DNA of 64,000 nucleotides. Origin: Lachnospiraceae bacterium (GTDB lineage: Bacteria; Bacillota; Clostridia; Lachnospirales; Lachnospiraceae). A program made the position numbers and the translations under genes. Location of the stretch: the NCBI GenBank assembly GCA_045578645.1, contig JAZNKQ010000067.1:8295-72294 (forward strand), in the 5' to 3' direction. Positions 3,416 to 48,714 of this stretch are shown here, one piece after another. Below the pieces are notes generated by a model. It was not told the origin of the DNA, ran no database searches, and saw nothing but the letters and a program-made list of their open reading frames with translations. Position 1 is the stretch's first letter; every line of letters begins with the position of its first letter.

Positions 3416-4291
3416 TTAGTACTTCTGCGCCGGAGCATAGAATTCAAAAATGACAGCATCGTTTTTCTCTTCAAGACGCTTAATATTATCACCCGGTCTT
3501 ACGGTCCAGACAAATTTCATGGCACCCATTGACTCGCAGAGCTTTACGGTAAAGCACTTTCCTTCCTTGTGGTAGGACGTAAAATGGGGTCTGGCGATTA
3601 CATTGGTAAGCAGGTGGGATAAAGCAAAGGCTACGGGACCAGAAAGTACTCCCTTGAAATCCGATGAGGGAGCGGACAGCTGGCCGCGGAGTATGTCGGG
3701 AGCGTTTTTCTTAAACCAGCCTACAATAAAGGGGCTGAAGCTTTCTATACAGTAAAGTCCCTTGTAGCTGCGCAGAAGCTCAAGTGTCTTTTGGCACAGA
3801 AGCGGGTTTTTCGGACCGTTTTTAAGCTCTACAAGGAGGGGAACTCTTCCGTCGACAGCTGCAAGAACCTCTGTGAAAAGAGGAATCTGTTCTTCCGTAC
3901 CGCAGAGGCGGAATTCCTTAAGCTCGTCATAGGTATAAAAATCTACCCTGTTGTCGATCCCGCAGACTCTGTTGAGAGTATCATCGTGGAAGACAACAAT
4001 CTGCTCGTCCTTTGTCAGCTGTAAATCAAGCTCAATTCCGTAACCGGCCTCAGTTGCGGCACGGAATGCGGCAAGAGAATTTTCGGGAATTTTCTTATCG
4101 GGGCTGTGGAGTCCGCGATGAGCAAGATTAAGATGATGAAACTTCCTGCGAAGCTCGTCGGCACCACGTCCGGGAGCAATAAGGAACAGTGTAATAAGGA
4201 ACAATACAAGAGCGATAAACAGCAGTACCGCTATAACTGAAATAATACTCGAGACCACGCCGGACCCGGGAAAAGAAAATAGGAAATTCAT
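3416..4291 (-). CDS. membrane-anchored glycerophosphodiester phosphodiesterase (GDPD family)
   Basis: Contains HRGLHSPDKKIPENSLAAFRAATEAGYGIELDLQLTKDEQIVVFHDDTLNRV, the GDPD catalytic signature, plus an N-terminal TM helix. The start at MNFLF is chosen because GGAG lies 6 nt upstream. Confidence 0.85.
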   Translation of the reverse strand: MNFLFSFPGSGVVSSIISVIAVLLFIALVLFLITLFLIAPGRGADELRRKFHHLNLAHRGLHSPDKKIPENSLAAFRAATEAGYGIELDLQLTKDEQIVVFHDDTLNRVCGIDNRVDFYTYDELKEFRLCGTEEQIPLFTEVLAAVDGRVPLLVELKNGPKNPLLCQKTLELLRSYKGLYCIESFSPFIVGWFKKNAPDILRGQLSAPSSDFKGVLSGPVAFALSHLLTNVIARPHFTSYHKEGKCFTVKLCESMGAMKFVWTVRPGDNIKRLEEKNDAVIFEFYAPAQKY

Positions 4292-4303
4292 ACTATGCTC
4301 CAT

Positions 4304-4402
4304 TTCTGAGCGACCTGTCGCGAGGAATATCATAATGGCTATTTGCTTTCGCTCAGAAACAAATAGCCGTGTGAAAAAGCATATTTATATGATTTTTCGC
4401 AC
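4304..4402 (-). repeat. conserved ~100-nt structured leader element, copy A (in the 5' UTR of the GDPD gene)
   Basis: The reverse complement aligns with copies at 45034-45130 and 48605-48700. The 35-mer GGCTATTTGTTTCTGAGCGAAAGCAAATAGCCATT is identical to copy B. Hairpin 1 has 2 mismatches here. Confidence 0.85.
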
Positions 4403-4441
4403 TATGCCTCCGATTTTAATCACTGCCATACGGCAGAAGAA

Positions 4442-4469
4442 ATTATAGCACAGGCAGATAAAAAATCAA
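4442..4469 (-). promoter_or_regulatory. sigma-A type promoter for the GDPD gene
   Basis: On the minus strand: TTGATT, a 16-nt spacer, then TATAAT. This places the repeat element inside the transcribed leader. Confidence 0.55.
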
Positions 4470-4551
4470 TATAAGCAGCTTCTTTTTATGTAATAAACCA
4501 CGGTCTGCATCGCATATACTGCTATAAAAAACATGCTTGAAAGGGGAAGCT

Positions 4552-26926: not shown

Positions 26927-27009
26927 GCGGAAATGGCGGAATGGCAGACGCGCACGGTTCAGGTCCGTGTGATAGCAATATCATGAGGGTTCAAGTCCCT
27001 TTTTCCGCA
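26927..27009 (+). tRNA. tRNA-Leu (anticodon CAG), class II with a long variable arm; no encoded CCA
   Basis: Manual fold: acceptor GCGGAAA/TTTCCGC, anticodon stem CACGG/CCGTG, loop TTCAGGT, T-arm GAGGG TTCAAGT CCCTT. Confidence 0.9.
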
Positions 27010-40984: not shown

Positions 40985-41125
40985 TGTGAATAGAATATTT
41001 ATAACATCTGCCCGTAGACAGTAGGTACCGTAAGGTGTAAGCGCAGCGCCTACCGAGGATACAGTTGCTTGTATTTGATATACGAATACTGCTTCCCTGT
41101 CACTGGCGGGGGAGCAGTTTTTAAT
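40985..41125 (+). promoter_or_regulatory. rplJ leader (L10-leader-like autoregulatory attenuator) preceded by a TTGACA-17-TATCTT promoter at 40947-40975
   Basis: A structured ~190-nt leader ends in the terminator-like hairpin ACTGCTTCCC...GGGGGAGCAGTTTTT (41088-41122) just before the rplJ SD. The assignment to the Rfam L10 leader is from memory and was not computed. Confidence 0.5.
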
Positions 41126-41165
41126 TATAATTGCTTCCCAATGAAACTATAAGGAGGTATATATC

Positions 41166-42468: not shown

Positions 42469-45021
42469 ATGAAATCGAACAAAGAAAAAGTATATGACTT
42501 TATAAAGCTTCATGATAATGAGGAGCGTGGCGGCGGAGTTTCAACCTCGTATATAGCGGATGCACTGGAGCTCCAGCGAACAAATGTGAGTAGTGCGCTG
42601 AATCTGCTCGTTTCGGAGGGGAGAATTCAAAAGAGGAACGGAAGACCGGTTCTTTATGGGATTATTCATGCTGAAAATGCAGAAGGCAATGACTGCTTTT
42701 CTGATCTTACGGGGCATGACGGCAGCTTAAAGCGCGCGATACAGCTTGCGAAGGCGGCTGTGTTATATCCCGAAAAAGCGCTTAATTCGATGCTGGTAGG
42801 TGCGCGGGGAACGGGAAAAAGCCGTATGGCGAAGCGAATGTATCAGTTTGCGGTTGAGCAGGCTGTACTTCCTCAAAATTCGCCGTTTATCCGGGTTGAT
42901 TGTCACGATTATCGTTCGAAGGAGCATCTTGCGGAGGAGCTTGCAGAAATTTGGAAGAAGGCATCCAATGGGGTGGTTTTTCTTGATAATATACAGTTTC
43001 TCAGCAGCCGTGCACGAAAAGAGGTACTTGAATATGTGCGTTCGAAGGAGCGTAATTATGCATTGATTGTGAGCTGTACGGACCGTGGCTGTCTGCCGGA
43101 TGAGTTTCTTGCGGAGTTTCCGATACAGATTGAGCTTCCGGCTCTTTCGCAGCGACCGGTCAGCGAACGGTTTGAGATGGTAAAGAAGCTGCTGCAAAAG
43201 GAAGCGGCACGAATTGGGAGGACTCTTATTATTCGCAGTGAACTGATGCGGTGCCTGCTGCTTTATGAATGCGAAGCCAATTATTATCAGCTGAAGGGTG
43301 ATATAAAAATCGGCTGCGCCAACGCCTATGTAAGGGAGTATAAAAACAAAGAGGATATAAGGCTGTTTGCGGGTGATTTTGCAAATCCGGTAAGGAAGGG
43401 CTTTTTAAGGTATCACTTGTACAGGAGAGAAATCGACGAGCTGATTTCTTCGGACCAAAGCTACATTTTTGACGGTAAGACCGTCAGTGTAAGTGCGTCC
43501 GATAAGAACAGTCTGTATGACAAATTGAATAAGAAGGCTGCGACGCTTAACGAGACCGGATTTGAGGAGGATGAAATAGGTCTGATTCTGAGTGCGGAGG
43601 TTGAGCGGTCGTTTGGAGAATATCAGAAGGATCTGCTGCGTGATGTGGGGGATAAGAGTCAGCTTGAGGCGCTGGCAGACGCAAAGCTGATTCAATTGGT
43701 TGAACAGTTTTTGAAGGATGCGGAAGCGCATCTTGACAGGAAGCTGTCGGACTCTGTTTTTTACGGTCTGTGTCTTCATCTGAATGCGGTAATAGCCGGA
43801 AGGAGAGAGCCGGAGCAGCCTGATAAGAGCCGGATAGCAGATATTCTCGGAAACCATAAAAGGGAATATCTGCTGAGTGCGGAATTTGCAGAGAGGCTTG
43901 CGAAGGAATATGATATAGAGCTTGCAATGGGTGAGATAATCCTGATTACTATGTTTCTCTGCTTTGAAAATGAGGAGCTGCCGCAGAGCGGAAAGCCGGT
44001 TATTCTGTATGCGCTTTACGGAGAAGGAATTGCGACGGCTATAGTTAAGGCTATTACGGGAATGACAAAATGGGATAATGTATTTCCGTACGAGCTGACC
44101 GGCGATAAAAATTCTGTTGAAACCTATGAGGCGCTGAAGGAGTACATTGCGGGGATAAACAGAGGAAAAGGGGTTCTGGTTGTATACGACAGCGGCTCCC
44201 TGCCTGAAATGCTGTCGGAGATTGAGGAGGAGCTTGACATTCCTATAAGACAGATTCCGATGCCTGTTACGACAATCGGAATTGAGCTTGCACGCAGAAC
44301 CATGACTGAGGATAACGCTGATATGGTATTGCGCAGTGCGATAAAGAATGTCGGAGCAGTCGGCGCATTCAGGAATAATTATATCGTAACGCTTTGCACG
44401 ACGGGCAAGGGAAGTGCGGAGGAGCTTAAGCGGTATATTGAAAGGAACGGACAGCTTAAGGATACGGAAGTTATCGCAATGTCGTATAGCGAAAGAGATG
44501 TGCTTTCGCAGGAATTCAGAAAGCTTATGCGGAACGGTATTATTAACTGTGTTGTGGGAACCTTTGACCCGCAGCTGTTTTCAATACCCTTTATTTCAAT
44601 CAGCGAGGTTTTCAGCGTCAGAAAGGACGGACTTCCAAAGCTTCTTTGTCTGGAGAAGGAAGCAAAGTCGCGAATTGATTACAATGCAATGTTTGATTAT
44701 CTGGGAGAGCAGCTTTGTTATGTAAATACAGATAAATTGAGAAAGTTGCTGCCTGAGACGCTGAGAGTAATAAATTCGGAGATTTCCGAGCTGTCGCTGG
44801 ATACGGAAGCGGGACTGCTGATTCATATTTCCTGCTGCATTGACCGTCTTATTGCAAAGGAGCCTACGGCGACGAACCCGAGGAAGAAAATGATACTTTC
44901 AAAGTATGATAAGGAATTCAGGGAACTGCTCAGGATTTTCAGACCGATTGAAAAAACATTTCATATCATTATAAATGACGATGAGATTGCCAATATACTT
45001 ATGATTATATATCAACTGTAG
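42469..45021 (+). CDS. LevR-like PRD-domain transcriptional regulator (wHTH, degenerate AAA+/sigma-54-interaction domain, PRD, EIIA-Man-like, EIIB-Gat-like, PRD)
   Basis: Walker A GARGTGKS, PRD-like segments (LCLHLNAV, LLIHISCCIDRL) and an EIIB-like LCTTGKGSAEEL. It lies directly upstream of the PTS operon. Confidence 0.8.
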   Translation: MKSNKEKVYDFIKLHDNEERGGGVSTSYIADALELQRTNVSSALNLLVSEGRIQKRNGRPVLYGIIHAENAEGNDCFSDLTGHDGSLKRAIQLAKAAVLYPEKALNSMLVGARGTGKSRMAKRMYQFAVEQAVLPQNSPFIRVDCHDYRSKEHLAEELAEIWKKASNGVVFLDNIQFLSSRARKEVLEYVRSKERNYALIVSCTDRGCLPDEFLAEFPIQIELPALSQRPVSERFEMVKKLLQKEAARIGRTLIIRSELMRCLLLYECEANYYQLKGDIKIGCANAYVREYKNKEDIRLFAGDFANPVRKGFLRYHLYRREIDELISSDQSYIFDGKTVSVSASDKNSLYDKLNKKAATLNETGFEEDEIGLILSAEVERSFGEYQKDLLRDVGDKSQLEALADAKLIQLVEQFLKDAEAHLDRKLSDSVFYGLCLHLNAVIAGRREPEQPDKSRIADILGNHKREYLLSAEFAERLAKEYDIELAMGEIILITMFLCFENEELPQSGKPVILYALYGEGIATAIVKAITGMTKWDNVFPYELTGDKNSVETYEALKEYIAGINRGKGVLVVYDSGSLPEMLSEIEEELDIPIRQIPMPVTTIGIELARRTMTEDNADMVLRSAIKNVGAVGAFRNNYIVTLCTTGKGSAEELKRYIERNGQLKDTEVIAMSYSERDVLSQEFRKLMRNGIINCVVGTFDPQLFSIPFISISEVFSVRKDGLPKLLCLEKEAKSRIDYNAMFDYLGEQLCYVNTDKLRKLLPETLRVINSEISELSLDTEAGLLIHISCCIDRLIAKEPTATNPRKKMILSKYDKEFRELLRIFRPIEKTFHIIINDDEIANILMIIYQL

Positions 45022-45033
45022 AATGGGAGGATA

Positions 45034-45130
45034 GTGTGAAAAATCATATATTAGATTTTTCACACGGCTATTTGTTTCTGAGCGAAAGCAAATAGCCATT
45101 GCGATATTCTTCGCGACAGGTCGCTTGGAG
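45034..45130 (+). repeat. conserved ~100-nt structured leader element, copy B (upstream of the PTS IIA gene)
   Basis: GTGTGAAAAATC-N8-GATTTTTCACAC (perfect 12-bp inverted repeat), GGCTATTTG-N14-CAAATAGCC, and a conserved 3' segment ending at the SD. Confidence 0.9.
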
Positions 45131-45142
45131 ATGGAGGATAAA

Positions 45143-48578: not shown

Positions 48579-48604
48579 AGTTAAATTCTTCAAAATGGAG
48601 ACTA

Positions 48605-48700
48605 GTGTGAAAAATCATATATTATGATTTTTCACACAGCTATTTGTTTCTGAGCGAAAACAAATAGCCATTGCGGTATTCCTTGCGACAAGTCGCTCAG
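48605..48700 (+). repeat. conserved ~100-nt structured leader element, copy C (between the GH1 gene and ptsH)
   Basis: It has the same two hairpins and 3' segment as copies A and B, with 2 substitutions in the 35-nt core. Confidence 0.9.
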
Positions 48701-48714
48701 AAATGAGGATTGGT

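Follow-up and report, generated by a model that had tools for sequence, protein, structure and literature searches.

The primary reports on the Neisseria REP2 repeats and on the inverted repeats (IRs) of Borrelia plasmids are said to be those of Parkhill in 2000, Morelle in 2003 and Dunn in 1994, and the one on the repZ pseudoknot is reportedly that of Asano and Mizobuchi in 1998. REP2 (CREN) and the Borrelia plasmid elements IR-A and IR-B are 120-150 bp long, have no terminal inverted repeats, contain two internal stem-loops and carry a promoter, a ribosome-binding site (RBS) and an ATG directly before genes; REP2 occurs in ~25 copies, and its origin and mode of spreading are unknown (Delihas, 2011, PMC3184786). 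In repZ of ColIb-P9, loop bases pair with a CGCC directly upstream of the Shine-Dalgarno sequence (SD) and the initiation region stays open; this control of repZ/repA, found in IncI-alpha (ColIb-P9), IncB and IncL/M plasmids, is a single-copy arrangement with a 4-bp GGCG/CGCC pairing that is set off when leader-peptide synthesis terminates beside the SD and is counteracted by an antisense RNA (PMC4705826). Here we describe a leader element that can be set beside both. It lies in a 64,000-nt stretch of a Lachnospiraceae draft genome (assembly GCA_045578645.1, contig JAZNKQ010000067.1), referred to below as the window, immediately before a glycerophosphodiester phosphodiesterase (GDPD) gene (copy A) and again, as copies B and C, before genes of the phosphotransferase system (PTS).

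The original prediction had taken this common leader as a link between glycerophosphodiester catabolism and the PTS genes in one regulon. The placement rule and the distribution of the copies do not support such a regulon: the same cassette precedes ~90 unrelated genes, and it is absent from nine GDPD orthologues of the same genus. We consider it likely that copy A belongs to a large, dispersed and modular family of leader cassettes that give a generic, cis-acting setting of translation initiation, and not a response specific to the GDPD and PTS genes. Any co-regulation conferred by the cassette would be genome-wide. The leader is generic and gives no ground for annotating the GDPD gene as under common control with the PTS genes.

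Copy number and placement of the cassette

The genome to which the window belongs (the own genome in what follows) is a 2.55-Mb draft in 132 contigs, 84% complete. With copy C as query, BLAST found more than 42 near-full copies in it, at 84-95% identity; nhmmer gave 177 matches, and a covariance model made from 19 copies gave 126, which merge into 109 arrays. This last search had been proposed together with the original prediction and, by the unrelated genes found downstream of the arrays, it counts against a GDPD-PTS regulon. A copy is carried by 19 of the 264 contig ends, against ~3 expected, so that the assembly evidently breaks on the repeat and the copy count is a lower bound. Within the window, the 32-mer of hairpin 2, the second of the two stem-loops of the cassette, occurs three times, with none expected from shuffles.

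The copies obey a rule of position and orientation. A co-oriented gene lies directly downstream of 93 of the 109 arrays; 76 arrays are intercistronic-like, as copies B and C, with a co-oriented open reading frame (ORF) ending at most 200 nt upstream, and in 10, as at copy A, the gene upstream is divergent. Typically, the cassette or tandem array ends with its own GGRG 6-7 nt before the start codon. The SD-bearing 3' module (GTCGCTCAGAAATGGRG, with up to three substitutions) was found at 130 sites, at 93 of which an ATG or GTG follows exactly 6 nt later; at some 90 of the sites the start codon, at a spacing of 4-11 nt, leads into an ORF longer than 100 aa, and most of the remaining ones run into GTGAAAAATCA, the start of the next tandem unit. 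The downstream genes are functionally unrelated. Among their recognisable N-termini are those of IF-2 (infB), Lon, ClpB, TrpRS (trpS), YchF and Cmk, and further those of PurM, PcrA/UvrD, RNase Z and regulators of the LysR and LacI types.

The family is built of modules, namely hairpin 1, hairpin 2, the 3' module with the SD and sometimes additional hairpins. Some copies have an additional hairpin (ACTAACTATCGGTTAGT) between hairpins 1 and 2, some an alternative inner stem of hairpin 1 with compensatory changes, and some are tandem units of 108 nt. A 20-nt hairpin module (AACTAACTATCGGTTAGTTT) in this place is carried by at least seven copies (e.g., C44:27940-28079, C42:53222-53361 and C11:12942-13081, the C numbers denoting contigs of the draft), while human-gut variants have another additional hairpin instead (GCAGATGAGAAATCGCCTGCGCGAATTTCTCATCGC). 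Many copies are truncated at the 5' side or have lost internal sequence lying between short repeats of GAAA(A)T. At least 15 of the 5'-truncated copies retain hairpin 2 and the 3' segment and still adjoin genes; together with the covariation described below, this bears out the earlier suggestion that these two parts form the better-kept core of the element.

Among 27 congeners searched with the covariance model, one holds 33 copies and five others a single match each (one strong, four marginal), and the family was found in 20 of 150 other Lachnospiraceae genera, each represented by one genome. The exact 27-mer of hairpin 2 is present in at least 120 metagenome contigs from the human gut and from woodrat caecum, and in 66 of the 75 usable metagenome cases the element carrying it lies 3-11 nt before an ORF, e.g., fliW or hslO-like genes. 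The same 27-mer is found in a cultured isolate, Lachnospira intestinalis CLA-AA-H89B, and in metagenome-assembled genomes (MAGs) of Roseburia, Lachnoclostridium, Acetatifactor and Jutongia. It is also held by MAGs of the NALB series (L295, L299, L301, L317 and others) labelled Bacteroides fragilis, Candidatus Gastranaerophilales and Bacillus sp., the labels or bins of which are probably wrong. In Rfam the cassette had no match, either in a scan of the whole window at the gathering threshold or with E up to 10 over positions 4250-4480, where the matches were at chance level only. The only matches above threshold in the window were an L10 leader (40994-41132, 71 bits) and a tRNA (26927-27009). 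A full-text literature search found no published description of the cassette family, which is apparently undescribed.

Pairing beside the Shine-Dalgarno sequence

Within the own genome, the stems and the pairing of the hairpin 2 loop with the 3' segment are 96.7% paired, compared with 34-47% when the partner is slid; for hairpin 2 the pair counts give 95.6%. The outer stem of hairpin 1 (GUGUGAAAAA/UUUUUCACAC) is kept across genera, and the inner stem shows compensatory variants. In 21 genus variants from the Lachnospiraceae, changes in the loop go with changes in the bases that precede the SD, and complementarity is retained, as seen in the loop/3' pairs CUGAGCGA/UCGCUCAG, GUCGCGAG/CUCGCGGC, CCGGAGCG/CGCUCCGG and CCGGAGCA/UGCUCCGG, and further in GCCGAGC/GCUCGGC, UGCGCGG/CCGCGCA and UGCGCAC/GUGCGCA. 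We compared these variants by anchors that are independent of pairing (the 12 nt after the stem TTTG, and the bases before the first SD-like tetramer), because the alignment made with the covariance model misplaces long variants. The duplexes of loops with their own segments have a mean of -14.8 kcal/mol, against -8.9 for cross pairs (0/20,000 permutations). A single fixed register gives pairing at 9.05 of 12 positions, versus 7.13 in the swap control (0/20,000) and 4-5 in other registers, and at five positions several Watson-Crick pair types are found. For copy A, the loop and the 3' strand with their flanks make an 11-bp duplex of -17.4 kcal/mol.

The distinct copies contain 79 G.U against 36 A.C combinations, counted over hairpin 1, hairpin 2 and the long-range helix, and G.U is the type to which the common inherited variants belong; this fits pairing on the sense strand. 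The covariation across genera, the retention of truncated copies and this excess of G.U favour pairing in a single strand (RNA) over a double-stranded DNA operator, which is also what had been proposed from copy A.

As a working mechanism we propose the following. The cassettes, co-oriented with the gene that follows, would act through their own GGRG as ribosome-binding site. On the leader RNA the two hairpins would form, and the 8-nt loop of hairpin 2 could form an H-type pseudoknot with a run of 8-11 nt whose end lies just 5' of the SD. The pseudoknot would compete with a small hairpin formed locally and with an anti-SD helix, by which the SD may otherwise be sequestered. The most likely outcome would be that translation initiation, and probably also mRNA stability, of the downstream gene is set in cis. 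In the genome copies, RNAalifold predicts a third element, a small hairpin GCGA/UCGC under a helix of UCCUC with the SD GGGGA; this hairpin and the long-range pairing use the same 3' strand, and therefore the two states would compete. With the pseudoknot strands withdrawn, the SD is modelled as unpaired with a mean probability of 0.40 instead of 0.25 (up in 26 of 45 copies and down in 12; Wilcoxon p = 0.007). We regard the pseudoknot-gated SD as plausible but unproven, and because most copies are intercistronic, the effect could equally be one on mRNA stability or processing.

Several points weigh against this mechanism and the pairing behind it. In the model, the accessibility of the SD of copy A is nearly unchanged by the pseudoknot (0.22 to 0.24). 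An 8-bp helix would take up the whole loop and leaves little steric room, unless the A-U pairs at the top of hairpin 2 come apart. The shorter genus variants have no anti-SD block, and the switch model may not be general. The excess of G.U counts copies and not independent events, and a single-stranded DNA intermediate would fit it too. Finally, the copies within the genome are too uniform for their covariation to be significant (the observed score is reached in 85 of 500 shuffles). In its native context, copy A has a decoy GGAGG upstream that is predicted to capture the anti-SD block; in the predicted folds, the partner of UUCCUC is this decoy in copy A and the working SD in the family consensus.

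Two related ideas were tried and rejected. A covariation of the anti-SD block with the SD (UUCCUC vs GGRG) was inconsistent on inspection, and the block is absent in short genus variants. A leader-peptide reading was discarded as well: the consensus mini-ORF at the 5' edge (GTG AAA AAT CAT ATA YTA TGA) encodes MKNHIL-stop and ends ~70 nt upstream, and its length is not conserved, spanning 5-26 codons among variants, and in copy A it is destroyed. Elsewhere in the genome, genes at C98:~140 and C109:~9110 start with VKNHI/MKNHI, the peptide of the cassette 5' edge (GTGAAAAATCAT); either this edge stems from a real gene start, or the genes were fused to a cassette remnant.

The GDPD locus and its surroundings

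Orthologues of the GDPD gene (59-68% identity) are present in ten other genomes of the genus, nine of them with readable upstream regions, and relatives of the gene come from uncultured rumen and gut Lachnospiraceae MAGs. All nine readable leaders have the order -10 box, 22-25 nt, GGAGG, 5-8 nt and ATG, and the cassette is found in none of them. In the genome of copy A the order is -10 box, 30 nt, GGAGGCATAGT, the cassette, and then GGAGCATAGT and the ATG. From the short, cassette-free leaders of the nine orthologues it follows that the cassette at copy A sits between the old SD (4411-4407) and the start codon. Judging from this comparison, the upstream GGAGG is probably the ancestral SD, now a decoy, and the working SD would be given by the cassette. 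Exact-protein look-ups with GDPD and HPr for strain-level empty sites gave nothing, and a 23-mer of the GDPD start had no match in metagenomes.

The promoter predicted upstream of the element, TTGATT-16-TATAAT, is present with 10 of 12 consensus matches and is the sole promoter-like site that the consensus scan finds on the minus strand between a divergent sipL-like gene and the GDPD gene; in the congeneric orthologues, a -10 box lies at the same distance from their SD. The element lies downstream of it, and most likely, as had been suggested, a GDPD leader of ~145 nt is transcribed from the gene's own promoter through the cassette. Of the parts of copy A (Table 1), the 12-bp stem of hairpin 2, identical to that of copy B, is intact, and so are the loop-complementary TCGCTCAG (4313-4306) and the GGAG (4301-4298), in agreement with the first description. 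Hairpin 1 had been called degraded, with two mismatches in 12 bp; the mismatches are real, but the stem is longer, at 15-16 bp. The C.A mismatch (4399/4372) occurs in copy A alone among 35 distinct copies, and the U.C mismatch (4392/4379) is common to four copies and is therefore a subfamily marker. Despite both, hairpin 1 of copy A is predicted still to fold.

Table 1. Features of the copy A locus and positions of copies B and C in the window.
Feature	Position	Strand	Basis and remarks
Copy A of the dispersed leader cassette, ~113 nt, TAGT-GCG-AAAAAT to GAAATGGAGCATAGT	4292..4404	minus	nhmmer 143.7 bits; covariance model R1 match C67:12583-12704, 131.5 bits; aligned with copies B and C
Hairpin 1 (IR1), 15-16 bp	4369..4402	minus	4402-4388 pairs with 4383-4369; mismatches C.A 4399/4372 and U.C 4392/4379
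Hairpin 2 (IR2), 12-bp stem, 8-nt loop CUGAGCGA at 4356-4349	4337..4368	minus	4368-4357 pairs with 4348-4337; exact 32-mer in common with copy B
Pyrimidine block UUCCUC, anti-SD-like	4322..4327	minus	Minimum-free-energy and centroid folds of copy A; RNAalifold consensus 85-89:110-114
TCGCTCAG (RNA UCGCUCAG), putative 3' strand of long-range pseudoknot pairing with the hairpin 2 loop	4306..4313	minus	Exact loop complement; ends 4 nt before the SD
GGAG, probable working SD supplied by the cassette	4298..4301	minus	6 nt before ATG 4291-4289
GGAGG, probable ancestral SD of the GDPD gene, now decoy at the cassette 5' edge	4407..4411	minus	30 nt after the -10 box; orthologue comparison
Small host-derived hairpin CUGCC-GUAU-GGCAG, outside the repeat	4423..4436	minus	Sequence and minimum-free-energy fold; near the predicted mRNA 5' end; upstream of where copies begin to align
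Sigma-A-type host promoter of the GDPD gene	4442..4469	minus	-35 TTGATT 4469-4464, 16-nt spacer, TG-extended -10 TATAAT 4447-4442; consensus scan 10/12 matches
GDPD gene, 291 aa, membrane-anchored glycerophosphodiester phosphodiesterase	3416..4291	minus	Start ATG 4291-4289; Pfam PF03009, E 3e-22; orthologue N-termini fit this start
Terminator-like hairpin past the GDPD stop codon	3361..3398	not assigned	
Copy B of the cassette	45032..45142	plus	Between the stop codon of a LevR-like regulator and the start of a cellobiose-type PTS IIA gene (ATG 45143)
Copy C of the cassette	48603..48714	plus	Between a GH1 gene and ptsH (ATG 48715)

The cassette also sets a trap for annotation. The longest ORF of the GDPD gene opens at an in-frame ATG inside copy A (4331-4333, minus), which would make 305 aa instead of 291, and the longest ORF of HPr opens at one inside copy C (48703-48705, plus), with 92 aa instead of 88. 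Both in-cassette ATGs are without an SD, and the orthologue N-termini match the downstream ATGs; automatic calling may place the two starts wrongly, inside the cassette.

Copy B starts 10 nt past the stop codon of the preceding gene. The LevR-like regulator encoded there (42469-45021, 850 aa) has an N-terminal region resembling a helix-turn-helix, an AAA+/sigma-54-interaction-like domain (weak, 31 bits) and PRD domains. This neighbour gave the idea of a sigma-54 promoter within the element, which was rejected as a by-eye check found no GG-N10-GC match; a sigma-54 -24/-12 promoter was not seen by eye before the PTS genes either, and the cassette occupies the gap. On the same contig, a fourth copy (C67:7202-7324) lies ~1 kb before the start of the window and precedes a 321-aa gene (MTENQYIYAVARIRSKEM...).

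Spread of the cassette and comparison with known systems

On inspection, the ends of the cassette (TAGTGTGAAAAAT... and ...GAAATGGGGAT) do not form an inverted repeat. The two junction motifs (GGRG-NN-TAGT) of one copy resemble each other more than those of different copies do, at 1.38 vs 0.94 of the 2 variable positions in 52 copies (z ~5-6, 0/5000 shuffles). Reading this as a target-site duplication was rejected, since the likeness is partial and statistical only and subfamily structure with tandem copies could yield the same; a place among the miniature inverted-repeat transposable elements was likewise discarded, for want of terminal inverted repeats and of a clean target duplication. The Y1 (HuH, IS200/RAYT) transposase domain PF01797 had 0 matches in the own genome, an absence that 84% completeness leaves unproven. 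Mobilisation by IS200/IS605 or RAYT was rejected on this result and on the lack of co-occurrence across genera: PF01797 is found in 7 of the 20 genomes with the element and in 77 of the 130 without it.

Insertion at random is hard to reconcile with the fixed 6-nt register to start codons. A direct repeat of ~20 nt, GGRG-ATTAGT-RTG-AAAAAT, borders the unit and could allow it to be duplicated in tandem, deleted, or copied by homology onto other strong RBS regions. Four gene pairs were compared with the cassette-bearing congener G019: one is occupied in both genomes, one shows a footprint, one a possible remnant and one is empty. The footprint, at C50:286-310 of the own genome (TAGTGTGAAAAATGGGGATTAATATATG, with TAGTGTGAAAAATGGGGATTAAT and TAGTGTGAAAAATGGGG), lies before the orthologue of a cassette-bearing gene of G019 and has the 5' edge of the cassette joined to its 3' edge. 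It looks like a deletion between AAAT repeats and is the sole clear case in the genome.

Seen from the window alone, a gene-specific RNA regulator acting in cis, whether riboswitch-like or protein-bound, might seem to unite the GDPD gene and the PTS operons in a small regulon, for all three copies precede carbohydrate- or phospholipid-related genes and the RNA-level pairing is real. We hold this to be extremely unlikely, with the cassette standing before ~90 unrelated genes, housekeeping ones included, with nine congeneric GDPD orthologues lacking it, with copy A grouping with copies before other genes instead of in a GDPD/PTS subfamily, with no match in Rfam even at E up to 10, and with 84-95% identity inside the genome but turnover between species, which is repeat-like and not riboswitch-like. 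The unrelated genes, the element-free orthologues and the lack of an Rfam match likewise made us reject a riboswitch or gene-specific leader class when known systems were compared. Nor do we give much credit to the palindromes as double-stranded DNA operators of a dimeric transcription factor acting downstream of the promoter. The outer stem of hairpin 1 (GTGTGAAAAA/TTTTTCACAC) is strongly conserved in sequence across genera, as is typical of protein recognition. However, orientation is strict, the fixed distance is to start codons and not to promoters, most copies lie between cistrons, G.U combinations are preferred to A.C ones, and the conserved long-range pairing is non-palindromic and shifts in sequence between genera while its complementarity stays. 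Such an operator is very improbable.

Two broader explanations bear on the whole family. It may be purely selfish DNA, mobile or recombining, in which the hairpins and the loop/3' complementarity would serve propagation via a single-stranded DNA or RNA intermediate, the host would demand no more than the restoration of an SD, and any effect on GDPD would be incidental. The patchy occurrence among congeners, with many copies in 2 of 27, and the 20 positive genera out of 150 speak for it, as do the tandem arrays, the enrichment at contig ends, the likeness of junction motifs within copies (z ~5-6), the deletion derivatives with the one footprint TAGTGTGAAAAATGGGG, and the different occupancy of orthologues in the own genome and G019. 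Against this stand the lack of terminal inverted repeats or a clean target duplication, the failure to find a Y1/RAYT transposase in the own genome and the missing association across genera, a 6-nt start-codon spacing incompatible with random insertion, and a pairing placed directly beside the SD, where translation can be affected. On balance we see selfish DNA as a possibility of some substance, though not a probable one; were it the whole explanation, the precise targeting of the gap between SD and start would demand a new insertion mechanism. Rather doubtful, in our opinion, is a global post-transcriptional regulon, in which a trans-acting RNA-binding protein (at the stem of hairpin 1) or a small RNA (at the loop of hairpin 2) gates the pseudoknot in all cassette-bearing genes, ~4% of the genome, those for GDPD and the PTS included. 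Precedents exist in the Neisseria REP2 repeats, which mark 14 co-regulated genes (Delihas, 2011, PMC3184786), and in the antisense RNA of ColIb-P9, which blocks an activator pseudoknot beside the SD (PMC4705826), and the hairpin 1 and loop sequences kept within the genome would offer many targets to one factor. Set against these precedents, we identified no candidate factor, the gene set has no functional theme, and many copies are truncated and yet kept.

The reading that we prefer, a dispersed leader cassette acting generically in cis on translation initiation, could be carried further. The cassettes might be self-propagating, portable translation-initiation modules, inserted between SD and start by a transposase-free route guided by RBS homology and replacing the RBS with a pseudoknot-gated one, so that ~4% of the genes in some gut Lachnospiraceae would be under one trans-acting protein or RNA reading the stem of hairpin 1 or the loop of hairpin 2. 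We offer this as a speculation and think it improbable in its entirety. What can be said is that a repeat that gives an RBS to about one gene in 25, with a covarying pseudoknot pairing beside that RBS, is unusual among bacterial interspersed repeats. If the pseudoknot does set translation, the cassette would be a natural portable 5'-untranslated-region or insulator part, and perhaps an unseen level at which abundant gut bacteria are globally controlled.

BOX of Streptococcus pneumoniae (boxA-boxB-boxC) and the related ERIC, RUP and bcr1 have in common with the cassette that they are Firmicute or intergenic repeats; they are of ~100-200 nt, occur in ~100 copies or more, are modular and co-transcribed with neighbouring genes, and are predicted to give stable folds in the mRNA. 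Unlike the cassette, BOX and its relatives have no fixed register to start codons and do not supply the SD, and RUP and ERIC have terminal inverted repeats; to our knowledge, none of them has sequence similarity to the cassette. With REP/REPIN the cassette shares the short hairpin-forming repeat, the strand-specific structure, the lack of terminal inverted repeats and target-site duplications, and the high copy number, whereas REP/REPIN lie mostly 3' of genes and depend on RAYT, and no Y1 transposase was found in the own genome.

The geometry of the repZ-type pseudoknot is matched by the cassette, as a functional analogy only and with activation putative. In both, the loop of an upstream stem-loop would pair with the bases immediately 5' of the SD in competition with a local masking structure, and a short ORF that has an SD of its own lies upstream of the structure. 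The pairing of the cassette is longer, 8-12 bp against 4 bp, and its mini-ORF, which varies in length and has been destroyed in copy A, ends ~70 nt upstream; an antisense RNA is not known for it.

By description, the Neisseria REP2 and Borrelia IR-A/IR-B elements appear the closest described kind, being intergenic, directly upstream of ORFs, RBS-supplying, with two RNA stem-loops and without terminal inverted repeats. REP2 belongs to a different phylum, and the likeness is one of analogy only. The cassette differs from REP2 in having no promoter of its own (copy A would use the host promoter, and copies B and C are intercistronic), in its more than 100 copies against ~25, and in the putative pseudoknot between loop and SD flank, the tandem arrays and the swapping of modules, none of which has been reported for REP2. 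Among known repeats, only the Neisseria REP2 and Borrelia IR elements approach the RBS-supplying character of the cassette.

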